DNA of 64,000 nt from an uncultured bacterium. Its GTDB lineage: Bacteria; Babelota; Babeliae; Babelales; Vermiphilaceae. The position numbers and the translations under genes are program-made. Where the stretch lies: positions 992,001 to 1,056,000 of the forward strand of contig OY970212.1 of NCBI GenBank assembly GCA_963713925.1, read 5' to 3'. The stretch's first letter is position 1, and every line of letters begins with the position of its first letter. The notes under the pieces were generated by a model that was not told the DNA's origin, ran no database searches, and worked only from the letters and a program-made list of their open reading frames with translations. Positions 21,378 through 37,696 of the stretch are shown here, piece by piece.

Positions 21378-22790
21378 TTATTCATTAAACGTCGAACTAT
21401 ACAACCCGAGATCCTTAATGTCAGAACTTTTAATATTGCCATCAAGCGAAAGGCCCGATTGAGACTTACTCGATAAAAATGCTCCCTTTTGTGGTCGAAG
21501 AATAAGATTGTTTCCTTCTTTTTCAAAAGTGAGAATAATGGCTTTACGATCCTTATTTGCCTTAAGGTTATAGGCATAGGTGGCGAGCTTTCCGCTTGCT
21601 CCTTTTAAAGTCAAAATCAATTTGTATGCAGCTTTTGGATCAAGACCGGTCATACGTAAATATCCATGATCTTCTTCATTTTTGCCCGAAGATTTTTGCG
21701 CGGCTGCTTCATTTCTATAAGCTGCCGTCACCGATTTGCCTTTGTCTCCATCGAGCAGTAATTGAATTTCCAAACCAAATTCACGCAGTTTATTTTTAAG
21801 CTCAAACGTTACTTTTTTTGCGATCGCTTCCGGAACTTGAAAACTCTTGCCCAATACCAATATCGGGGCTTTCCATTCTACTGGGACAGGAAGAGTTTTC
21901 GGCTGCTCAACATTCGATTGTTGTTGTAGCGCTTTTTGTCTCTCTTTTTCCTCACGTTCTTTTTGAATTTGAATGCGATCTTCCTCTTCTTGCTTACGAC
22001 GAGCGGCTTCACGGGCTGCCTGTTCTTCTTCTTTTTTACGTTTTTCTTGCTCAGCTTTTTCGCGTCTCAACTTCTCTTGAGCATCAGTAGCCTCTTTTAC
22101 TTTGCGCTCTGCTTCCGCTTTTTCTTTTGCTATTCGCTCACGCTCACGTTGTTCATTAAGTTCATTTTGTTTTTTCTTTGCATCTTCCTGCGCGCGTTGC
22201 TGAGCGTATTCTTCTGCTTGTTCAAGTTTCATATCCATACGATCAATAATCTCGGTGGGCAGGAATTCTTTCCAGCGCCACGGCGCAGTCAATACAACAT
22301 GTGCACGCTCAAGTTCATCTTTCTTGGCTTGAGAAACATTTTGCTGATCGAATGTTTTCTTGCGATATTCATAATCTTTTTCAATGGTCTCATTACTATC
22401 AATGACATTCGAATCTGAGGCACTCAAACGAGTGCCAATCAGCTGACGCATTTGAAGTAGCTGATCTGCAAGTTGTTTTGATTCAGTTGCGGTCAATCCA
22501 GGAAAATTGGGGGCTTTCTTTGAAGAACCATTAACCAACATGTTGTACATAAGAATTCTACGATCATTCGCTTTTTGAATCTTTTTATATGCATCGCCCA
22601 ACCGCTTTCTTATATCTTTTCGCTCTTGGGCACTATTGGTTTCAGCTACCTGTTTCTCAACAATTTGTGCATATTGTTTTTCAAGTTCAGCGGGTGTCGC
22701 AAAGGGGCTCAGCTCAAGTAAGGAAAAAGGAGATGAACTCTGCAGCGTCCATGATACAAAGGCGGCACAAAGCATCATAATCTTCTTCAT
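21378..22790 (-). CDS. Secreted paralog: degenerate J-like segment, charged coiled coil, shared C-terminal domain
   Basis: PFSLLELSPFA; FELKNK/HGYLR/SQSG motifs shared with neighbours. Confidence 0.8.
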   Translation of the reverse strand: MKKIMMLCAAFVSWTLQSSSPFSLLELSPFATPAELEKQYAQIVEKQVAETNSAQERKDIRKRLGDAYKKIQKANDRRILMYNMLVNGSSKKAPNFPGLTATESKQLADQLLQMRQLIGTRLSASDSNVIDSNETIEKDYEYRKKTFDQQNVSQAKKDELERAHVVLTAPWRWKEFLPTEIIDRMDMKLEQAEEYAQQRAQEDAKKKQNELNEQRERERIAKEKAEAERKVKEATDAQEKLRREKAEQEKRKKEEEQAAREAARRKQEEEDRIQIQKEREEKERQKALQQQSNVEQPKTLPVPVEWKAPILVLGKSFQVPEAIAKKVTFELKNKLREFGLEIQLLLDGDKGKSVTAAYRNEAAAQKSSGKNEEDHGYLRMTGLDPKAAYKLILTLKGASGKLATYAYNLKANKDRKAIILTFEKEGNNLILRPQKGAFLSSKSQSGLSLDGNIKSSDIKDLGLYSSTFNE

Positions 22791-24346
22791 AATGGACCCT
22801 TTATTAATTTAATTTCCGATTCTTTTATGTTTTTCTCGAGCGGGATGCCCGACTGGGACTCGCTTGAAAAAAGAGCTCCTTCTTGTGGTCGCACGACAAA
22901 ATCATTACCCTTTTTTTCAAACTTGAGTAAAATATGACGGCGATCATAATTGCTTGCCACATCATATACAAATCGCTTAAACATCACATCTATTATCAAT
23001 TGATAACGCTCTCTTGGATCCAATCCAGCAATACGCAAATATCCATGTTCTGATTCTTCTTTGCCAGCAGATGACGCCACGACGGCTTCACCCTTATATG
23101 GCTCGGTAATATTTTTTTTCGCGTCACCATTTTCAAGAAGCGTGATAGCAAGACTTCCTTCTGAAAATTTATTTTTGAGCTCAAACGTAAATTTATTTGC
23201 CATTTTTTCAGGTGCGGGGAAAACAGTGCTAAAAGTCAAAACGGGAGATTTCCAATTCTTTTTTTCCGCTGCTCGTTCCGCCTGAGCTGTTTCGCGATCG
23301 ATTTCCTCTCTATGGCGCTTAAGTTTTTCTTGCGCTTCACGACGAGCACGCTCCTCTTGCTCTTTTTCATTTTTTATCCGTTCAGCCTCTTTTTCAGCCG
23401 CAGCTTTGTCTTTTGCCTCTTGCTCATTCTTTTTACGCAATTCTTCTTTTTTTGCACGAGCCTCTTGTGCACGCTGAGCTTCTTCCTGTTCCTTTTCTCG
23501 TTTCAATCGCGCCTCTTGATCACGTTTCTCCTGCGCTTTTTCCATCAAATCAACTTGCTCACGATTTTTAATCGGTTCGTTACTCGACACCTCAACCGGC
23601 TCATCATTTTTTTCAAAATCCGCCGCAACAATCGGATTAATAAATTCCTTGAGTCTCCACGGTTGAGTTAGTACGGTATATGCCTGCTCAAGATCGCTCA
23701 ATAATTTATTTTTCTTACTAACTTCCCTGATTTCTTCAGCACGTCTTTTTGCAATTTCATACTCTTTTTCAATTTGATTATTTGAATCAATAATATTTGA
23801 TTTCGGCTTTGATAACTGAGCTCCTTCGCCCACCCAATTTCGTAGAAGCGTTTCCATTGTTTTTGAAAATGGTTCCGCAACTTTTTTAAGCGATGATGCC
23901 AACTTATCCAAAAAACTATCTATTTTTAAAAGGTCTGAAGTGCTTTTCGATGCCAATAATTCTCTTGCCCAAAGAAGATAATTAACCAGCACATCGGATA
24001 TATCAGAATCAAGCCCATAAAAATGAGGATTCCTCTTTTCGGCTCCGTTGACCAATAAATAATACATCGTCAAACGCCAATCTTCGGGCTTTTGAAGTTG
24101 CTTATAGGCTGAAATGGTTTGATCTCTCATTTCTTTTCGCTTCTGATTACTTTTTGATTCCGGAATTACTTGTTCCATAATTTCAGCATACCGCTTGTTA
24201 AGTTCGTCCGGCCCGCCAAAAGGACTTATCTGCAGCACGCCAAATGGGTTTTTCTTCAATGCTCGAGAAACGAATTCGCCTTTCGCTCCCGCCCAGATCG
24301 TGGACATCATACAGAAGATTGACAGCAACAAAACAGCTTTTCTCAT
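22787..24346 (-). CDS. Secreted paralog: degenerate J-like segment, charged coiled coil, shared C-terminal domain
   Basis: GAGGGG SD before MRKAVLL; NPFGVLQISPF; FELKNK/HGYLR/SQSG. Confidence 0.8.
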   Translation of the reverse strand: MRKAVLLLSIFCMMSTIWAGAKGEFVSRALKKNPFGVLQISPFGGPDELNKRYAEIMEQVIPESKSNQKRKEMRDQTISAYKQLQKPEDWRLTMYYLLVNGAEKRNPHFYGLDSDISDVLVNYLLWARELLASKSTSDLLKIDSFLDKLASSLKKVAEPFSKTMETLLRNWVGEGAQLSKPKSNIIDSNNQIEKEYEIAKRRAEEIREVSKKNKLLSDLEQAYTVLTQPWRLKEFINPIVAADFEKNDEPVEVSSNEPIKNREQVDLMEKAQEKRDQEARLKREKEQEEAQRAQEARAKKEELRKKNEQEAKDKAAAEKEAERIKNEKEQEERARREAQEKLKRHREEIDRETAQAERAAEKKNWKSPVLTFSTVFPAPEKMANKFTFELKNKFSEGSLAITLLENGDAKKNITEPYKGEAVVASSAGKEESEHGYLRIAGLDPRERYQLIIDVMFKRFVYDVASNYDRRHILLKFEKKGNDFVVRPQEGALFSSESQSGIPLEKNIKESEIKLIKGPL

Positions 24347-24510
24347 GAAATATCCCCTCAAATTAATTTCATTACCCTTCTCAAAGATAATCATATACAG
24401 CCCTAACAAATCAATACCTTCAGTAAAAATTTCAGATAGAACATTGAATCATTAAAGCGATTAATGTTATTATTCATATAGAGGCAAAAAATGGACCAAA
24501 AAGGGACACT

Positions 24511-30448: not shown

Positions 30449-30739
30449 ATGGTTTTTGTCTCAATAATTGTGGGTTTTCTCATCGGATTATTATACCGAT
30501 TTTGGTTTGTACGCATGCAAACCAAAATCGGTTTTCTTACGCAGACCAATTCAAACACGCCGACACGTCTTTTTTTTGAAACCATTGTTTTAAGTTTTGC
30601 ACGAATTGTACTTATATCAGCACTTCTTACATACCTGTTGCTATCAAACGCAATCCATCTTATAATCGTAACACTAGTTTGTGGTATAACGATTGCTCTT
30701 TTTGGAGTCATTAAGGATATTGCGCATGGAAGGCATTAG
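30449..30739 (+). CDS. Small membrane protein (AtpI-like)
   Basis: Hydrophobic; directly upstream of atpB. Confidence 0.5.
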   Translation: MVFVSIIVGFLIGLLYRFWFVRMQTKIGFLTQTNSNTPTRLFFETIVLSFARIVLISALLTYLLLSNAIHLIIVTLVCGITIALFGVIKDIAHGRH

Positions 30740-31472
30740 TATCGGCCAATCTCACACCTGGCATCCCCTTTCCGCTTTTACTCATAACCCTTTTTTTGAA
30801 TTAAATCCCGAGACGATCATCTTCACATGGCTCGCCTTGGCGCTCATTGTCGTGGCATCGCTCGTGATGCGATACTTTTTAATGCGCAAGACAAGCATTG
30901 TTCGCTATTTTTTTATTTCACTCGCACGCTTTTTTAAAGATTTGACTGAACAAACGCTCGGCTCCTTTGTCGCAGATCATTTTTATTTTGTCACCTCAGT
31001 TTTCATTTTTTTATTGGCGTGTAACACCCTGCCTGTTCTCCCCTGGACTGAAGAGCCAACAAAGGATATTAATACTACTCTTGCTATGGGTCTCGTCTCA
31101 TTTTTTTATATTCAAATATATACCATTAAAGTTCACGGCATTATCGGTTATTTAAAAGAATATTTCACGCCTGTCTTTTTTATGTTCCCGTTACATGTTA
31201 TCTCTAAACTTTCATCGATTGTTTCATTATCATTCCGTCTCTTTGGCAATATTTTCGGCGGAGCCGTCATCGGACAAATTTTTCTCGCGCTCATTCAAGG
31301 TTCTCTCGCATTAGAAATACTCGGTTTGCCTATAAATTTTGTCATTCTTTCATTTTTTGTAATCTTTGAAGGGATGCTGCAAGCTTTTGTATTTGCGATG
31401 CTTACTTTGACCTATCTTGCAATTGCAATATCAAGTGAACATGAAGAAGCTCATTTGGGAGACATACCATGA
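30726..31472 (+). CDS. atpB: F0 ATP synthase subunit a
   Basis: PTKDIN, SLSFRLFGN with essential Arg, LQAFVF. Confidence 0.95.
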   Translation: MEGISIGQSHTWHPLSAFTHNPFFELNPETIIFTWLALALIVVASLVMRYFLMRKTSIVRYFFISLARFFKDLTEQTLGSFVADHFYFVTSVFIFLLACNTLPVLPWTEEPTKDINTTLAMGLVSFFYIQIYTIKVHGIIGYLKEYFTPVFFMFPLHVISKLSSIVSLSFRLFGNIFGGAVIGQIFLALIQGSLALEILGLPINFVILSFFVIFEGMLQAFVFAMLTLTYLAIAISSEHEEAHLGDIP

Positions 31473-32419
31473 TCGAACTCAGCTCCTTTTTACATTATCT
31501 TTCAATCGGGCTTATGACTTGTATCAGTCCGTTAGGAGTTGGTTTGGGCCAAGGCGGCATCGCACTCTCTGCCATAAAAGGAATAAATCAACAACCAAGC
31601 GCCCAAAATGCTATTTCCAGAATCGCTATTTTTGGCATGGTCCTCCTTGAATTTGCCGCAATTGCTGGAGTAACATTTGGCCTCTTGTTGGTGTTTGGCA
31701 AAACGCCTATTACGCTCCCGATAAGCATTGCAGAATTGGGCATTGCTCTCGCCATTGCAATTTCAGGGCTTGCCGTTGGAATTGCATGTTATTTTCCCGC
31801 TGCAGAATCATGCGCGGCAGTCGCACGACAACCATTCGCGGCACAATCAATTTTACGATTCATGTTAATCGCCCAATCAATGATTCAAACTCCGATTGTG
31901 TTTAGTTTTATCATCGGCATCTTTGCCAAAGGACAAATTCATGAAGGGATGTCGCTTGAGTCAGGGATTCGTTTATTGTCCGCCGGCCTTTGCATCGGGC
32001 TCGGATGTGTAGGCCCCGTATGGGGCTTGGCACTCTTTGCACGCAATGCATGCAAAGGAATTGGTATTAATCGAGCAGCCTATAATCCGTTGCTTACCTT
32101 CACTTTTATCAGCCAAGCAATCATTGAAACACCACTTCTCTTTGCGCTTGTCATTTCACTTCTCATTGTCAGCGCACAAGATGGGGCAACGCTTGCCAGC
32201 GCGCTTACTTTTCTCGCGATTGGTCTGTGTATGGGGATAGGAACTTTGGGGCCCGGAATGAACTCTGGCCGCACTGCAGGAGCAGCTGCTTTGCAAATCG
32301 CATACAAACCGGAACTCTATAGCAGCGTGTCAAAAGCAAGCACTTTAGCCCAAGGCTTGATTGATGCAAGTGTTATTTATGTATTCTTAATAGCACTTGC
32401 GATGTATCTTTTGAGATAA
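31469..32419 (+). CDS. atpE: ATP synthase subunit c, four fused hairpins
   Basis: Four GxGxG / (RQ)P-loop / carboxylate-helix repeats; ATGA overlap with atpB. Confidence 0.88.
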   Translation: MIELSSFLHYLSIGLMTCISPLGVGLGQGGIALSAIKGINQQPSAQNAISRIAIFGMVLLEFAAIAGVTFGLLLVFGKTPITLPISIAELGIALAIAISGLAVGIACYFPAAESCAAVARQPFAAQSILRFMLIAQSMIQTPIVFSFIIGIFAKGQIHEGMSLESGIRLLSAGLCIGLGCVGPVWGLALFARNACKGIGINRAAYNPLLTFTFISQAIIETPLLFALVISLLIVSAQDGATLASALTFLAIGLCMGIGTLGPGMNSGRTAGAAALQIAYKPELYSSVSKASTLAQGLIDASVIYVFLIALAMYLLR

Positions 32420-32439
32420 AAAGAAAATAGGTTTTATAA

Positions 32440-32650
32440 TCGTTCTAATGGATTCGACTCCACTACGATTCACCCATGCTTGACGCATGGGGTCCGTAGT
32501 TTCGCTCACCACGAACGGTGAGGAAAAATTTGATCGCTATAAAAGGGTATGTTTGTTCGTGTGACATGTGGTACCTATCTAAAATCAAGAAGAGTCACGT
32601 TCCGTTCGTGGTGAGCGGAGTGAAAACGTAGTCGAATCCATTCGAACGGT
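32440..32650. repeat. Inverted pair of REP-like units
   Basis: Same unit as at 20285-20497. Confidence 0.7.
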
Positions 32651-32681
32651 AAAAACCGGATGTACAATTTAAGGAAGTAAT

Positions 32682-34850
32682 ATGGAAGCAACAATTACCT
32701 CTAATCAACACAGACGACCGATTTTAACTCTTTTTTTTGTAGCCGCAGCGCTTGCCTGTGGCATATTGGCATGCATAGAATTAGCGCGATTATGGACTCA
32801 TACGCAAAAAACAAGCGTCCTTTTTGTCAACACTGCAGAACAGAAAACAAGAGATGCTGTTGCCTCGATATGGAAGATTTTGCAACAAAGCAATACTTAT
32901 TTTGATGAAATAGCTCCCACACTGTATGGTCGAAACTATGATTTTTCCGAAATTGAGGAAGCATTGCGAAACAGACCGTCCTTTCTGTCCGGTGCCTTTG
33001 TTGATGGTTTTGCAAACGTTCATGCCATGTCTATCGAATTAAATGATAGTCAAAAATATAAAAAGATTGAAACCCCTGAGGATATCGCAGAGCTTGAACA
33101 TCTGATTGACTCCGGCGATAATTTTATTAGTGGCAATAAGCCGTTTATTTTGACTACCGAACCATACACACACATCCCAAGCCTGATGCGCATAGCAAAG
33201 CATGGTGGTACGACGTCTGCAATAAGTATCAATATGAATCATATTGATCACATTTTAAGAACCTTATATCTCGATCAAAGTGGCTACTGGTTTCTAACAG
33301 ATGAAGCTGGAAATCTTATCAATCACCCGAACCATCAATACGCATTGCACAATCAGACTATTTTTGATATCGCCAAGCAAACAAATTCACCGACGTTAGC
33401 AACTCAATTTGAAAAGAGAACCGGTTCAAAGCCGGTCTTTGTTGATTATGCAAATGAAATAACCCATGCTCGCTCTCGCGCATTTATACAAAAAATTCCA
33501 CAGACCCCACTCACTTTGGTAGGAGTTTTTGACCTTAATGAGACTGATATCAAAGCAGATTTTATTCGACAACATCAACTGCTTTTATGGTGGTGGCTGG
33601 TGCTTTGTTTATTTTTTCTGATTATTGCAGCGCTCAGCTACAAATCTCCTCTGACTTCCAACTCGATGTGGTATGCGAGCATTGCCGCCACATTTATTTT
33701 AGTGATTGCCATCGGCGCAAGTTGGGTGACCTGCCTTACATATCCGTACGTGGCTCCTGACGATACCCAAATAACCAGCAAAAAACAGCTGTATCAAATG
33801 TTGCAAGAACTCGAAAAATGGAAACAAAAAGACCCGAATGCTCCTTCGCCTTCCGAACTTGTTAACACGAAGCAAAATGGAGATGCAACCTCAAACCCTG
33901 TCGATCCGCTCAGTTTTCGATATAAACAGGGCAAATATATTCCGACCGGTATTTTGATCAATGATATTTCATTTGAAGACCATGAAAAGATTCAATTCGT
34001 AGGTTATATCTGGCAACGCTATTTTGACGGCATACATGATGGAATTGAACGAGGATTTATTTTCCCTCAGTTAGCCGACAAACCGACGATCTCACAAATT
34101 CATCGCTCAAAACAAGGAAACACTGAAACTATTATTTGGCAAGTAAGCACAAAGCTCAACCAAGACTTTAGCTATGAACGATATCCCTTTGATGTAGCAA
34201 ACATAACGATTGCAATCCGACATAAAGAATTTGATAAAAATGTCACACTCGTGCCCGACCTCGATGCATATTCCATCATTAATCCAACCTCATTGCCCGG
34301 TATTAACAAAACAACTCATATCAACAACTGGGCATTGCTCAAAAGTTATTTCGGTTACGATTTTCAACAATATTCGACAAACTTTGGCCTGTATCTATAC
34401 GGACCTTTTGGCACATACTCTCGCTCGGAACAGTCTGATGTCGCTGAACTTCGTTTTAACGTGATTGCTCAGCGCTATCTTATTGATACGATTATTACCG
34501 ACCTGCTGGCCCTCTGCGTGATCGCCGTCATTTTATTTGTGTTGCTATTGACCTATTTTTCTGAAGGATTTGAACTCATACTCGAGACTGCGGGAGCTGC
34601 ATTTTTCAGTACCGTTTTCGCACAAATTCAATTTCGTTCCAAGGCGCCAACTCATGAATTCGTTTATTTTGAATCGTTTTATTTTGTGCTGTACGCAACG
34701 ATTATTTTATTGCTGATATCGACCCTGATACATTTATTTCATCTCAGGTTTAAATCTATTAATTATAAGCACAATATCATCACAAAAGTCTTATACTGGC
34801 CCTGCATGCTGATGGCGCTCTTATGCAGCACCATATGGTTTTTATATTAA
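32682..34850 (+). CDS. Cache-domain fused pentameric ligand-gated ion channel homolog
   Basis: Cache-like GYWFLTDEAGNLINHP; FVGYIWQRY; Pro-loop YPFD; four C-terminal TMs. Confidence 0.75.
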   Translation: MEATITSNQHRRPILTLFFVAAALACGILACIELARLWTHTQKTSVLFVNTAEQKTRDAVASIWKILQQSNTYFDEIAPTLYGRNYDFSEIEEALRNRPSFLSGAFVDGFANVHAMSIELNDSQKYKKIETPEDIAELEHLIDSGDNFISGNKPFILTTEPYTHIPSLMRIAKHGGTTSAISINMNHIDHILRTLYLDQSGYWFLTDEAGNLINHPNHQYALHNQTIFDIAKQTNSPTLATQFEKRTGSKPVFVDYANEITHARSRAFIQKIPQTPLTLVGVFDLNETDIKADFIRQHQLLLWWWLVLCLFFLIIAALSYKSPLTSNSMWYASIAATFILVIAIGASWVTCLTYPYVAPDDTQITSKKQLYQMLQELEKWKQKDPNAPSPSELVNTKQNGDATSNPVDPLSFRYKQGKYIPTGILINDISFEDHEKIQFVGYIWQRYFDGIHDGIERGFIFPQLADKPTISQIHRSKQGNTETIIWQVSTKLNQDFSYERYPFDVANITIAIRHKEFDKNVTLVPDLDAYSIINPTSLPGINKTTHINNWALLKSYFGYDFQQYSTNFGLYLYGPFGTYSRSEQSDVAELRFNVIAQRYLIDTIITDLLALCVIAVILFVLLLTYFSEGFELILETAGAAFFSTVFAQIQFRSKAPTHEFVYFESFYFVLYATIILLLISTLIHLFHLRFKSINYKHNIITKVLYWPCMLMALLCSTIWFLY

Positions 34851-34936: not shown

Positions 34937-35751
34937 ATGAAGAAATTTATTCTGTTCCTAACAATTGTCGGAATCAACTTTTTATCTGCCGCCGACAGAG
35001 ATTATACCCCACCTAAAAACGTACCCCGCTGCCAGCAGAAGAAGCATCGTTGACGGGACTTCCGAAGGAACTAAAAGCACATATTATTCTCTTGCTTGCT
35101 CAATCGAACTTTGATTTCGAAGCCTCAATCAAAGCAATTAAAAATCTCGCTCAAGTGAACACAAAATTTCGCGACTTACTGAATGATCCCACCATCAGAC
35201 AAAATTTACTACCATTTCTGAGCAAACAATTTGGTATTCCTCAAGAGCAAATTGCCTTCGCGCTCGGAACTCCACAAGCGTTAAACTGGCTACAACAAAA
35301 ATATCCACATCCTACTTATTTAAACCTTCTTAAAGCTATTTTTTACAAATTTGATTCTAATTTGAAATTTTTAAACTCGCGCTATTTCATTGGCTTAGTT
35401 GAGAAACTTTCTAAAGGTCAATTTGAATCGAGTGTCAACACTTTATGGCACTTTATAGAAGGTCTAAACGCTCCCGATATAGCATTGTCGCACGCAGATA
35501 CTGCAAGAAAATTGAGCTTTTTAATTTTGGCACGGTTAGATTTATTAACTGATTCAGAAATAATGGGCTATCGTAACATCTTTGAACTTATAGATGGTTT
35601 AGTCAGTGAACAAGAAATTGTTTTACCCATTAGGCTACAAGAAAATCTGAGAAGAGCTTTACAGATAATAGAGGCGAATGAATCCGAAGGATCGGAGCGA
35701 ACTCTTTCCGGATCTGAAAGCTTTGGATCCGCTTCTGATTATGGCGAGTAA
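34937..35751 (+). pseudogene. F-box-like secreted paralog 1, frameshifted
   Basis: MKKFILFLTIVGINFLSAAD stops at 35053; one extra A in A5 (35015-35019) joins it to ORF 35050..35751. Confidence 0.75.
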
Positions 35752-35802
35752 ACATCAATGACATTTTTTCTCTAGATTACTGATGAATAATAGGAATCGC
35801 GT

Positions 35803-36582
35803 ATGAAAAAATTTATTTTGGTCTTAACAATTACCGGAGTCAACTTTTTGTCCGCCGCGGACAAAGATGATTCAAATAAACGCAAAAAACCATCGGAAAC
35901 CACACAAGAACAAGCATCATTCGAATCTCTTCCAGCTGAAATCAAGATAGTAATCATACAACAATTGGTAGCTGCCCATTTTGACTTCGATGCATCCATT
36001 GAAAACATCAGAAATTTAGCTCAAGCCAATAAAGAATTGCTCTCTCTGGTTACTAATGAGAAAACCGTAGAATCAATTTTGGATTTACTGAGCAAACAAC
36101 TCAAAATCTCGAGAGCCGGAATTGCTTTTGCTCTCAATACTCCGTGGTCTTTAGCATGGATTAAAAAACAAAATAATATATTGCAGGAAGAAATTCTCCG
36201 GGAAATTTTTCTGAATACAACCAATATCAATCTCTTAAGCTCAGATCAACTTCTTCAATTAGCGCAACAATTGAACACGACGCCATTAAAATTCTGTCTT
36301 GTCCTCATCAATGAAAATCTCCCTGCTCGGTTCCCGCCCCCATCTTTTTCTCATGTTTTACAAAACCCACGGTCCAATCTTTATAAAGCATATAGAACAT
36401 TATGCCTATTGCTTGTCACACTGCAAAATAAAATTACCATATACGACATGGCCGAATTAGGTATACATGTTTTGATCAATGTCGAAACCATGCTCTTGAA
36501 TGCTCTGCAGCAACCAATTGATGAAACATTTAAACAAAAAATTCAAACCGCTGTACAGAAAATAGGAAATTTTTTGGCTTAA
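35803..36582 (+). CDS. F-box-like secreted paralog 2
   Basis: Signal peptide; FESLPAEIKIVII; IAFAL motif. Confidence 0.75.
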   Translation: MKKFILVLTITGVNFLSAADKDDSNKRKKPSETTQEQASFESLPAEIKIVIIQQLVAAHFDFDASIENIRNLAQANKELLSLVTNEKTVESILDLLSKQLKISRAGIAFALNTPWSLAWIKKQNNILQEEILREIFLNTTNINLLSSDQLLQLAQQLNTTPLKFCLVLINENLPARFPPPSFSHVLQNPRSNLYKAYRTLCLLLVTLQNKITIYDMAELGIHVLINVETMLLNALQQPIDETFKQKIQTAVQKIGNFLA

Positions 36583-36648
36583 GACCAGCAGATTTTACTT
36601 TTAAAAAAAATGTTTAAATGAAACATCCTTTGTCACAGAATTCAGATA

Positions 36649-36762
36649 TTCCATCTCAGATTTAAATCCATTAATTATCAAAAAAAAATTATCACTAAAG
36701 TGTTACACTGGCCCTGCATGTTGATGGCGATTTTGTGCTGCACTATATGGTTTTTGTATTGA
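36649..36762 (+). pseudogene. Duplicated 3' fragment of the ion channel gene
   Basis: Encodes FHLRFKSINYQKKIITKVLHWPCMLMAILCCTIWFLY*, matching the last 37 aa of 32682..34850. Confidence 0.85.
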
Positions 36763-36877
36763 ACATGGATTTTTCTTCATCGCATACATCAAACGAATAC
36801 TATTGACTAATTGAATTTGTATTTTATATATTTACTATAGAATTGTAATATAAAAAATCAAATTCAAAAGAGTTTAT

Positions 36878-37696
36878 ATGAAGAAATTTATTTTGCTCAT
36901 ATTAATTGCCTGCATCAATTCACTTTCTGCTGCTGACAGAGACAATGATATGCCCGCAAGGCAAAAAGCTGCCTCACAGGAAGACCTTCTTTCGTTGCTT
37001 CCGCCGGAAATAAAAGAAATGATTATTCGACAATTGGCTTCGGCTAATCCCTATTTCGAAGAAACGATAGAAAAGCTCAAGGGTTTGTTTAGTTTATTCA
37101 TGGTAAATAAGGCCTTTTCTCAATATCGAAATCAAATTAATATACCCGCTATCTTAGAGTTATTGGCAAAGAAGTTTAACATACCCAAAACAGCAATCGC
37201 ATTCGCTCTCGGATCGAATGGAGCATTACAATGGTTGCAAAATAAATATCCGCAAAACACTTTTCTTTCGGTATTTAACGACATTTTTAAAGATCGATAT
37301 CTTAATTCATCTTTTTTGAATTCACATTATTTTACCGAATTAGTCATGAAACTCTCGCAAGGCAATTTTGTGCTTATATTTGATACTTTACTCGCCCATA
37401 CAAATTTTAAAAATCCCAATTGGGTAAAAAAAATCGGTCTTCTCCTTGCCGCAAGAGCCGACCTCTTGACGGACAACGAGATACTCGGGCAATCAAAGCT
37501 TATAAATGATGTGTGGAATAGCCAAAATATGCCCGAATCTGTCTGGAAGTTTTCACCATGGCTCAAACAAAAACTGTTCGAACTGCGTGAAAGGCTCAAA
37601 ACAATAGAGCGACAACAGCGGTATGCAGGTTATGAGAGCGACGAGACACTAACAGGATCAGAACATGACTCTGACTATGGATCAGACTTCGAATAA
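36878..37696 (+). CDS. F-box-like secreted paralog 3
   Basis: Signal peptide; LSLLPPEIKEMII; IAFALG; acidic tail. Confidence 0.75.
   Translation: MKKFILLILIACINSLSAADRDNDMPARQKAASQEDLLSLLPPEIKEMIIRQLASANPYFEETIEKLKGLFSLFMVNKAFSQYRNQINIPAILELLAKKFNIPKTAIAFALGSNGALQWLQNKYPQNTFLSVFNDIFKDRYLNSSFLNSHYFTELVMKLSQGNFVLIFDTLLAHTNFKNPNWVKKIGLLLAARADLLTDNEILGQSKLINDVWNSQNMPESVWKFSPWLKQKLFELRERLKTIERQQRYAGYESDETLTGSEHDSDYGSDFE

Follow-up and report, generated by a model that had tools for sequence, protein, structure and literature searches.

A four-hairpin c subunit of the Dependentiae (Babelota), a probable segment of a hybrid F-type rotor

Background

Brandt and Muller in 2015 reportedly listed about twelve anaerobes that each have an F-type c gene alongside a V-type one, a set that may include longer forms. 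Each ion site of a c-ring takes its Glu and Gln from one hairpin and its Ser/Thr and Tyr from the preceding hairpin. In a ring of the Na+ type, one subunit contributes Glu65 and residue 32, the adjacent subunit contributes Ser66 and Val63, and Tyr70 bonds Glu65 (PMC3692424). In a double hairpin, the Ser/Thr and Tyr of the first hairpin act with the Glu of the second, and Na+ binding is described by a rule that combines Gln or Glu in helix 1 with E[STQ][STQ]xxY (bioRxiv 10.64898/2026.10.01.756066). The closest described system is the ring of Acetobacterium woodii, which holds one c1 and nine single-hairpin c2/3 subunits (PMC9171764; PMC7911925); the c1 and c2 genes stand side by side in both A. 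woodii and Clostridium aceticum (PMC7911925).

No published description of a four-hairpin F-type c, or of Dependentiae c genes, was found in the literature searched. The TM6 genomics paper treats ATP synthase only generally (PMC4776705), and a 2026 preprint on evolution names A. woodii as a mixed ring and makes no mention of Babel- or Dependentiae (bioRxiv 10.64898/2026.10.01.756066). Here we describe such a gene in a stretch of 64,000 nucleotides (hereafter the window) from a member of this phylum of amoeba parasites, and we conclude that the gene is real and probably encodes part of a hybrid F-type rotor.

Results and Discussion

The c4 gene and its surroundings

The original prediction of a 316-aa frame with four hairpins and E/Q/E/D at the ion-binding positions is borne out. 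PF00137 matches the protein, here called c4, in four stretches (E 4.7e-22; 78.5 bits against a cut-off of 24); the repeats align nearly gap-free, with LLEF, MIQT, IIET and LIDA sharing one column (E61, Q140, E220 and D299); and an AlphaFold2 model built from a 50-row alignment is all-helical with four hairpins (mean pLDDT 97.4, pTM 0.93). The ATG of c4 overlaps the atpB stop by 4 bases (Table 1), and the subunit a encoded by atpB carries the two essential residues whose equivalents are invariant in 69/69 relatives. A frameshift, read-through or assembly artefact was considered and is out, given that the four c4 matches of a genome-wide PF00137 search share a single stop-free frame of 324 codons and that relatives are steady in length at 313-335 aa. 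Among the 150 matches listed, TGA occurs once inside the matched stretch in G171:C17:1114-2049 and in G150:C37:2599-3549.

Table 1. Coordinates of the c4 locus within the window
Feature	Position	Strand	Remarks
likely atpI	30449..30739	+	96-aa hydrophobic ORF upstream of atpB; called from position and size, without family match
atpB, subunit a	30726..31472	+	248 aa; sole copy in genome; essential Arg171 and Gln219 retained
Shine-Dalgarno-like purine run	31457..31461	+	7 bases upstream of c4 start
c4, four-hairpin F-type c subunit gene	31469..32419	+	316 aa, ATG start
c4 hairpin 1	31469..31708	+	~aa 1-80; Q28 + E61, Na+-type acceptor half; without Tyr at E+5
codon E61	31649..31651	+	
c4 hairpin 2	31709..31948	+	~aa 81-160; Q140 replaces carboxylate, QTP motif, canonical RQP loop
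codon Q140	31886..31888	+	
c4 hairpin 3	31949..32185	+	~aa 161-239; E220, ETP motif, Leu at Q32-equivalent, Phe at E+5
codon E220	32126..32128	+	
c4 hairpin 4	32186..32416	+	~aa 240-316; D299, Y304; donor half for next subunit's site
codon D299	32363..32365	+	

Several other features of the window were recorded. On the 3' side of c4, positions 32434-32655 hold two inverted arms (26 nt at 85% and 16 nt at 100%). BLAST with the left 86 bases gave 34 further matches elsewhere in this genome, roughly ten of them near full length; this looks like a REP-type repeat family. A frame at 32682-34850 (plus strand) encodes a 722-aa membrane protein with a weak match to a Cache domain and no family above cut-off, whose C-terminal part reads like a ligand-gated-channel fold. 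Several related frames that open, by eye, with an F-box-like 'LPxE(L/I)K' segment lie at 35050-37696, where three stand in tandem, and at G000:C1:421724-422563, and are possibly host-directed proteins. On the minus strand (21378-24409), two tandem paralogues of 470 and 540 aa appear, again by eye, to open with a signal-peptide-like stretch and to combine J-domain-like segments with extended coiled regions rich in charge.

Two c genes for one enzyme

The genome, whose nearest named records belong to Dependentiae/Babeliales, is a single contig of 1.32 Mb (95.75% complete) with five PF00137 matches, of which four are those in c4 and the fifth, at G000:C1:306847-307029, is an 82-aa single-hairpin c that heads the series c-b'-b-delta-alpha. 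Beta-epsilon and gamma lie at other sites in the genome; b', b, delta and epsilon were called from position and size. There is one a, one gamma, one alpha and one beta (a third alpha/beta match reads as Rho), and V-type subunit I (PF01496) has no match in the genome, so the two c genes belong to one enzyme. The set that accompanies c4 (a, b, delta, alpha, gamma, beta, epsilon) is F-type, with no V/A-type set.

The small c carries Q29 and E62-S-S-x-x-Y, the full Na+ motif, and thus conforms to the Na+ rule cited above. Among 41 small c relatives, Gln is found in 39/41, Glu in 41/41, Ser/Thr at +1 in 37/41 and at +2 in 29/41, and Tyr in 37/41. Its gene is about 717 kb away from that of c4, which means that the two are not co-transcribed. 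A stronger ribosome-binding site for the small c was considered and dropped, as the medians do not differ (-5.6 for the small c vs -6.0 kcal/mol for c4, p 0.91); beyond gene position, therefore, the sequence lends no support to an excess of small c.

The original prediction had envisaged a ring whose hairpin number is divisible by four and whose subunits each carry three ions, and held that a normal single-hairpin atpE forming the ring would speak against it. A single-hairpin c does exist in this genome and in nearly every relative, so that this objection largely applies and the envisaged ring lacks support; a ring of c4 only, in a multiple-of-four size, was set aside once it was found. The size of a ring that contains c4 need not be a multiple of four.

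Distribution in the phylum

The phylum was searched through 191 genomes, all at least 90% complete and all from one order. A c4 profile matched in 191/191 at E 1e-30 or better, with a single match in each except for two partial matches in one genome (G066). Pfam hairpin matches numbered five in 172 of these genomes, four in 18 and two in one, and none had more; for the 172 the split is taken to be four plus one. Of the 19 genomes with fewer than five, 18 have the small c, and in the remaining one (G126) a contig end 922 bases away from the start of alpha cuts off the preceding stretch; the small c is thus seen or inferred in 190/191. Every full-length Dependentiae c4 that was aligned has four hairpins. 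In all 61 loci holding atpB, c4 follows it at -58 to +31 bases (with an overlap of 1 or 4 bases in 25), and b' comes after the small c in 41/41.

Anatomy and conservation of the ion sites

In 62 aligned c4 relatives, a skewed set of kin that are not independent and of which 37 come from the window's own family, the four column positions hold an acid in 62/62, Gln in 48/62 (Glu in 11/62), Glu in 59/62 and Asp or Glu in 61/62. Eight of 40 extracted regions without a whole c4 (one at a contig end, seven in too-narrow windows) had been left out before counting. A separate profile search gave an acid in 132/132, Gln in 96 (Glu in 27), Glu in 126 and Asp/Glu in 127 of 132 full-length proteins, which include the query and at least two non-Dependentiae proteins. 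The Gln of the second hairpin, whose conservation had been proposed as a check, is accordingly kept in most homologs (48/62 and 96/132). Three acids are present in 49/62 c4 proteins, four in 10/62 and two in 3/62.

The conserved ligands are gathered at the two ends of the protein. An acceptor half (Gln or Glu at the Q32-equivalent) stands at hairpin 1 in 53/62, the residue being Glu in 24/62, and a donor half stands at hairpin 4 in 53/62 (Asp/Glu 61/62, Tyr 60/62, Ser/Thr at +1 55/62). The original prediction had regarded the Na+ signature as only partial, with GQG in repeat 1 and ET in repeat 3. Both motifs are indeed present, but a split site had been misread: since the Na+ ligands come from two neighbouring hairpins, Q28 and E61 make up a complete acceptor half. 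The window's own c4 has Phe62 (2/62) and Ala300 (7/62) where most relatives have Ser/Thr, and because of Ala300 the site after its hairpin 4 is without a hydroxyl ligand.

At the inner positions, by comparison, a complete Na+ site is found in 0/62 and an inner Tyr likewise in 0/62. The site between hairpins 1 and 2 is without an acid in 51/62. Those between hairpins 2 and 3 and between 3 and 4 keep it in 59/62 and 61/62, respectively, with no Tyr and mostly no Gln in the 62 sequences; acid, Gln and Ser/Thr are combined at the former in 2/62, and Phe occupies E+5 of hairpin 3 in 61/62. The Gln at E-4 in hairpins 2-4 was considered as a substitute Na+ ligand and dropped, because the same Gln occurs in hairpin 2 of A. 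woodii c1 and before both the Glu- and the Gln-bearing hairpins of the Desulfobacterota-like proteins described below. The RQP loop is kept in hairpin 2 (59/62), and hairpins 3 and 4 are without RQP.

To follow change at the acid positions, a tree was drawn from 42 of the 62 Dependentiae sequences and 12 others with the trait columns left in and a midpoint root. It splits the Dependentiae into an 11-row, mostly four-acid group (99/92 support) and a second group (99/98) of 31 rows that read mostly E,Q,E,D/E but include a single four-acid row. The tree gives no direction, in that acids kept and acids regained both fit.

Multi-hairpin c proteins in Desulfobacterota-like genomes

The profile search that started from c4 yielded further multi-hairpin F-type c proteins. 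One of these led to 2410 matches, and those with names among the 120 listed are Desulfobacterales, Deltaproteobacteria or Thermodesulfobacteriota. These Desulfobacterota-like proteins have four, five or six hairpins, and 114/129 read EQQQ, EQQQQ or EQQQQQ, that is, with one acid. Of 458 confirmed metagenome loci the best 80 were taken, and in 72 of these the multi-hairpin c is directly followed by a single Na+-type c in the order a - multi-hairpin c - single c, and the other eight end within about 170 bases of the match, at contig ends. No description of this family of four to six hairpins was found in the literature searched; Desulfatiglandales are described as having two to four atpE copies, in a text that gives no hairpin counts (PMC13343851).

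Several features are shared with c4. The four-hairpin Desulfobacterota-like c is about 324 aa long, follows atpB and is partnered by a single-hairpin Na+ c and b', and both families have the inner (Q/E)TPxIF motif and the Tyr of the last hairpin. Dependentiae hairpin profiles scored on the Desulfobacterota-like proteins pair first with first (53 bits vs 38-46) and fourth with fourth (73 vs 53-60); the profile of hairpin 2 is best on inner hairpins, and that of hairpin 3 is without a clear positional match. The two families differ in their acids (one in the Desulfobacterota-like c, three or four in c4), and in that the Desulfobacterota-like operon is intact with a variable number of hairpins, whereas the Dependentiae operon is split with the number at four. 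The Dependentiae layout is the Desulfobacterota-like operon broken between its two c genes, a-c4 and c-b'-b-delta-alpha keeping their order on either side. The pattern of half-sites at the two ends of c4 recurs in A. woodii c1 and in this family of four to six hairpins.

Other forms were met in the same searches. The Desulfobacterota-like small c (L153-L232) has Glu at the helix-1 position in 41/42 distinct sequences, a Na+ motif with two carboxylates that has been described for Fusobacterium. P0062 and its cluster are 968-aa F-type c proteins in which all 13 hairpins have Glu and an ESAAIY-like motif; many Trp where Gly is expected suggest an organism with UGA=Gly translated with the wrong code, and P0062 could be a whole rotor in one chain. 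P0136 and P0163, from records named Promethearchaeota and Hodarchaeota, are A-type-like proteolipids of 1139-1147 aa and 15 hairpins, all with Glu, and are longer than the 13-hairpin Methanopyrus protein. P0104, P0147, P0137 and P0124 have, respectively, four hairpins reading E,S,S,Q; four reading E,E,E,Q; five, all E; and three, all E, the last in a record named Margulisiibacteriota.

A probable mixed ring of c4 and small c

Taken together, these data make it probable that c4 forms a wide segment of a hybrid Na+ F-type ring together with the small c, in an enzyme that works mostly as an ATP-driven pump. Here c4 would serve as an intact four-hairpin c of the cell's single F-type ATPase, the remaining positions of the ring being filled by the one-hairpin Na+-type c encoded elsewhere in the genome. 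Hairpin 1 (Q28, E61) and hairpin 4 (Ser/Thr at +1, Y304) would complete normal Na+ sites with their neighbours, and the site at Q140 would be empty. The sites at E220 and D299 keep the acid but lack the Gln and Tyr ligands, and would still bind an ion, either Na+ weakly or H+. By analogy with Acetobacterium c1, about one c4 per ring would be expected.

A complex prediction for c4 with two small c gave weak support, scoring 0.32 against 0.01 for the best control; a like complex (4BEM) is already solved, so that the pass may merely echo it. The mark used for this score was reached by 116/157 solved complexes and 2/215 mismatches, but it was reached with a score of 0.60 or below by only 18 of the 157 and by both mismatches. 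The runs with small c agree in at least 88% of contacts, with a partner pLDDT of at least 76.

The end half-sites fit a ring of c4 only equally well, since the site at hairpin 1 of one c4 could be completed by hairpin 4 of its neighbour. Two alternative rotors, one of c4 only (e.g., three copies with 12 hairpins and 9 acids) and one of small c, might be swapped to change the ion/ATP ratio, a reading that takes in the originally predicted ring. The mutual fit of the half-sites speaks for such an arrangement, as do the separate operons, which allow separate regulation, the single-chain and the multi-hairpin homomeric rings of archaea (bioRxiv 10.64898/2026.10.01.756066) and the 13- and 15-hairpin c proteins found in our search. 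However, both c genes are retained together in essentially all genomes, the c genes adjoin in the relatives' operon, as is also the case for c1 and c2 of A. woodii and of Clostridium aceticum (PMC7911925), the relatives' one acid per four hairpins would leave a ring of three with 3 ions per 3 ATP, and the F1-contacting RQP loop occurs in c4 only in hairpin 2 (59/62). We therefore consider alternative rotors very unlikely.

It is also conceivable that c4 is an assembly scaffold, or a partner of subunit a, on which the ring is nucleated and which afterwards departs or remains static. Its tie to atpI and atpB in 61/61 loci and the diverged loops of hairpins 3 and 4 would suit such a role. Nevertheless, three buried acids kept at 95-100% against an overall identity of 28-53% are hard to explain without ion binding, and the closest solved relative, 4bem_J, is a rotor subunit, which makes a scaffold highly improbable.

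Direction of the enzyme and its ions

For the proposed mixed ring of c4 and small c, the direction of rotation has to be judged from the rest of the genome. Searches of this 95.75%-complete genome for Rnf/Nqr, complex I/Mrp antiporter subunits, cytochrome bd and heme-copper oxidase gave no match; the last was matched in 1/61 sampled genomes. That lone match (G172:C10:55-831) lies at a contig edge and could reflect contamination or transfer. Four frames in the genome are ATP/ADP translocase-like. The absence of a detected respiratory chain and the several translocase homologs point to pumping driven by host ATP: the enzyme would run mostly on host ATP, pump ions out and hold the membrane potential. 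ATP-driven pumping, as first proposed, thus remains plausible with no respiratory chain found, and we regard it as the likelier direction; an ATP-hydrolysing function has also been inferred for the TM6 ATPase (PMC4776705).

The lost carboxylate does not itself fix the direction, and ATP synthesis by the hybrid enzyme of A. woodii sets in at 90 mV (PMC9171764). An alternative is that the hybrid ring serves chiefly for ATP synthesis, with a Na+ gradient that a pyrophosphatase derives from waste pyrophosphate as the driving force. A membrane pyrophosphatase is present (G000:C1:193892-195811, L150); it is of the K+-dependent type with Ala in the GNxxA motif, scores best on models named sodium-translocating (833 bits against a cut-off of 546 on NF001960), and could build a gradient. 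All characterised Na+-pumping pyrophosphatases are K+-dependent (PMC9408878), and the A. woodii enzyme shows that a hybrid can synthesise ATP at low driving force (PMC9171764). Yet K+-dependent pyrophosphatases include H+ pumps, the family name of NF001960 covers many subfamilies, no respiratory or Rnf/Nqr pump was found, and ATP is importable; the pyrophosphatase of TM6 has been called a proton pump (PMC4776705). Operation mainly as a synthase appears decidedly unlikely to us.

The original prediction also proposed that the ion/ATP ratio is lowered. One site is indeed lost, but with one c4 per ring only that site is certainly lost and the drop is small: for one c4 in a ring of 10-13 hairpins (assumed sizes), simple arithmetic gives 3.0-4.0 ions/ATP by acid count and 2.3-3.3 when complete Na+ sites alone are counted. 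It is doubtful that a lowered ratio is an adaptation to parasitism, as 10/62 relatives have four acids and the non-parasitic Desulfobacterota-like kin have one.

The TM6 ATPase has been described as maintaining a proton gradient (PMC4776705); the motif suggests that it is of the Na+ type. Three or four acids, compared with the E,Q,Q,Q of relatives, leave open a rotor for both Na+ and H+. That the rotor actually carries two ions, with Na+ on the small c and the c4 edges and H+ on E220 and D299, seems unlikely. If it did, each turn would export Na+ and one to three protons in a ratio written into the gene, and a parasite without a respiratory chain would obtain both gradients from one ATP-driven motor.

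Comparison with known rotors

By both sequence and fold, the best natural match of c4 is A. woodii c1 (4bem_J; E 2.6e-10, Foldseek rank 1), with a superposition of Z 14.8 and rmsd 1.7 over 154 residues. The original prediction was right to liken c4, as a fused F-type c in which one carboxylate is lost, to Acetobacterium c1. In a second structure search, designed helical repeat proteins filled the first two rows, which was put down to a common arrangement.

Fused hairpins and fewer ion sites are likewise features of V/A-type proteolipids such as Enterococcus hirae NtpK, the eukaryotic V-ATPase c/c'/c'', the triple c of Methanocaldococcus and the 13-hairpin K of Methanopyrus, and the two-hairpin fold superposes at an rmsd of about 2-3. 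Unlike them, c4 belongs to an F-type operon, and its highest scores are on F-type c families. Assignment as a V-type K subunit was rejected, the K models reaching 25-29 bits vs 88 for the best F-type model, with no PF01496. N-ATPases generally are without delta and occur as a second enzyme. The c subunit of N-ATPases resembles c4 in weak matches to TIGR03322 and related models, in a Na+-type motif and in the Glu that 24/62 c4 have at the Q32-equivalent of hairpin 1; c4 was rejected as a member (all scores under the cut-offs, with 77 bits on TIGR03322 vs 130.85, a single enzyme and a delta-sized gene before alpha), and unlike N-ATPase-bearing systems this genome has delta, b/b' and only one ATPase.

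The gene content of an F/V hybrid, namely a fused c with a lost carboxylate and a separate single-hairpin c in one enzyme, is found here. Like the c1 of A. woodii (AtpE1; PDB 4BEM chain J) and of Clostridium aceticum, c4 consists of fused F-type hairpins encoded right after atpB. As with A. woodii c1, it is accompanied by a separate single-hairpin Na+-type c and has one Glu replaced by Gln; its first hairpin has Q...E without Tyr at +5 and its last has Ser/Thr and Tyr. In contrast to c1, whose four helices form two hairpins with a single ion site, c4 has four hairpins and three acids; the lost acid is in hairpin 2 of 4, the last hairpin retains Asp/Glu, and two inner acids are without Gln and Tyr ligands. 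The Dependentiae c genes stand in separate operons rather than in one operon with the fused c first, and b and b' are both present, unlike in the A. woodii system.

The series of four to six hairpins varies in its surviving ion sites, with one in the Desulfobacterota-like proteins and three or four in the Dependentiae. Nature thereby provides a collection in which to study the number of empty or altered seats that a rotor can carry past subunit a and the factors that determine how many fused subunits enter a ring, and it bears on whether Na+ and H+ sites can stand side by side in one ring. Hybrid F-type rotors have so far been represented by one solved ring and a few anaerobes, and c1 is known from a few acetogens, whereas c4 spans a whole parasitic phylum, with the four-hairpin form fixed in every genome of it that was searched.
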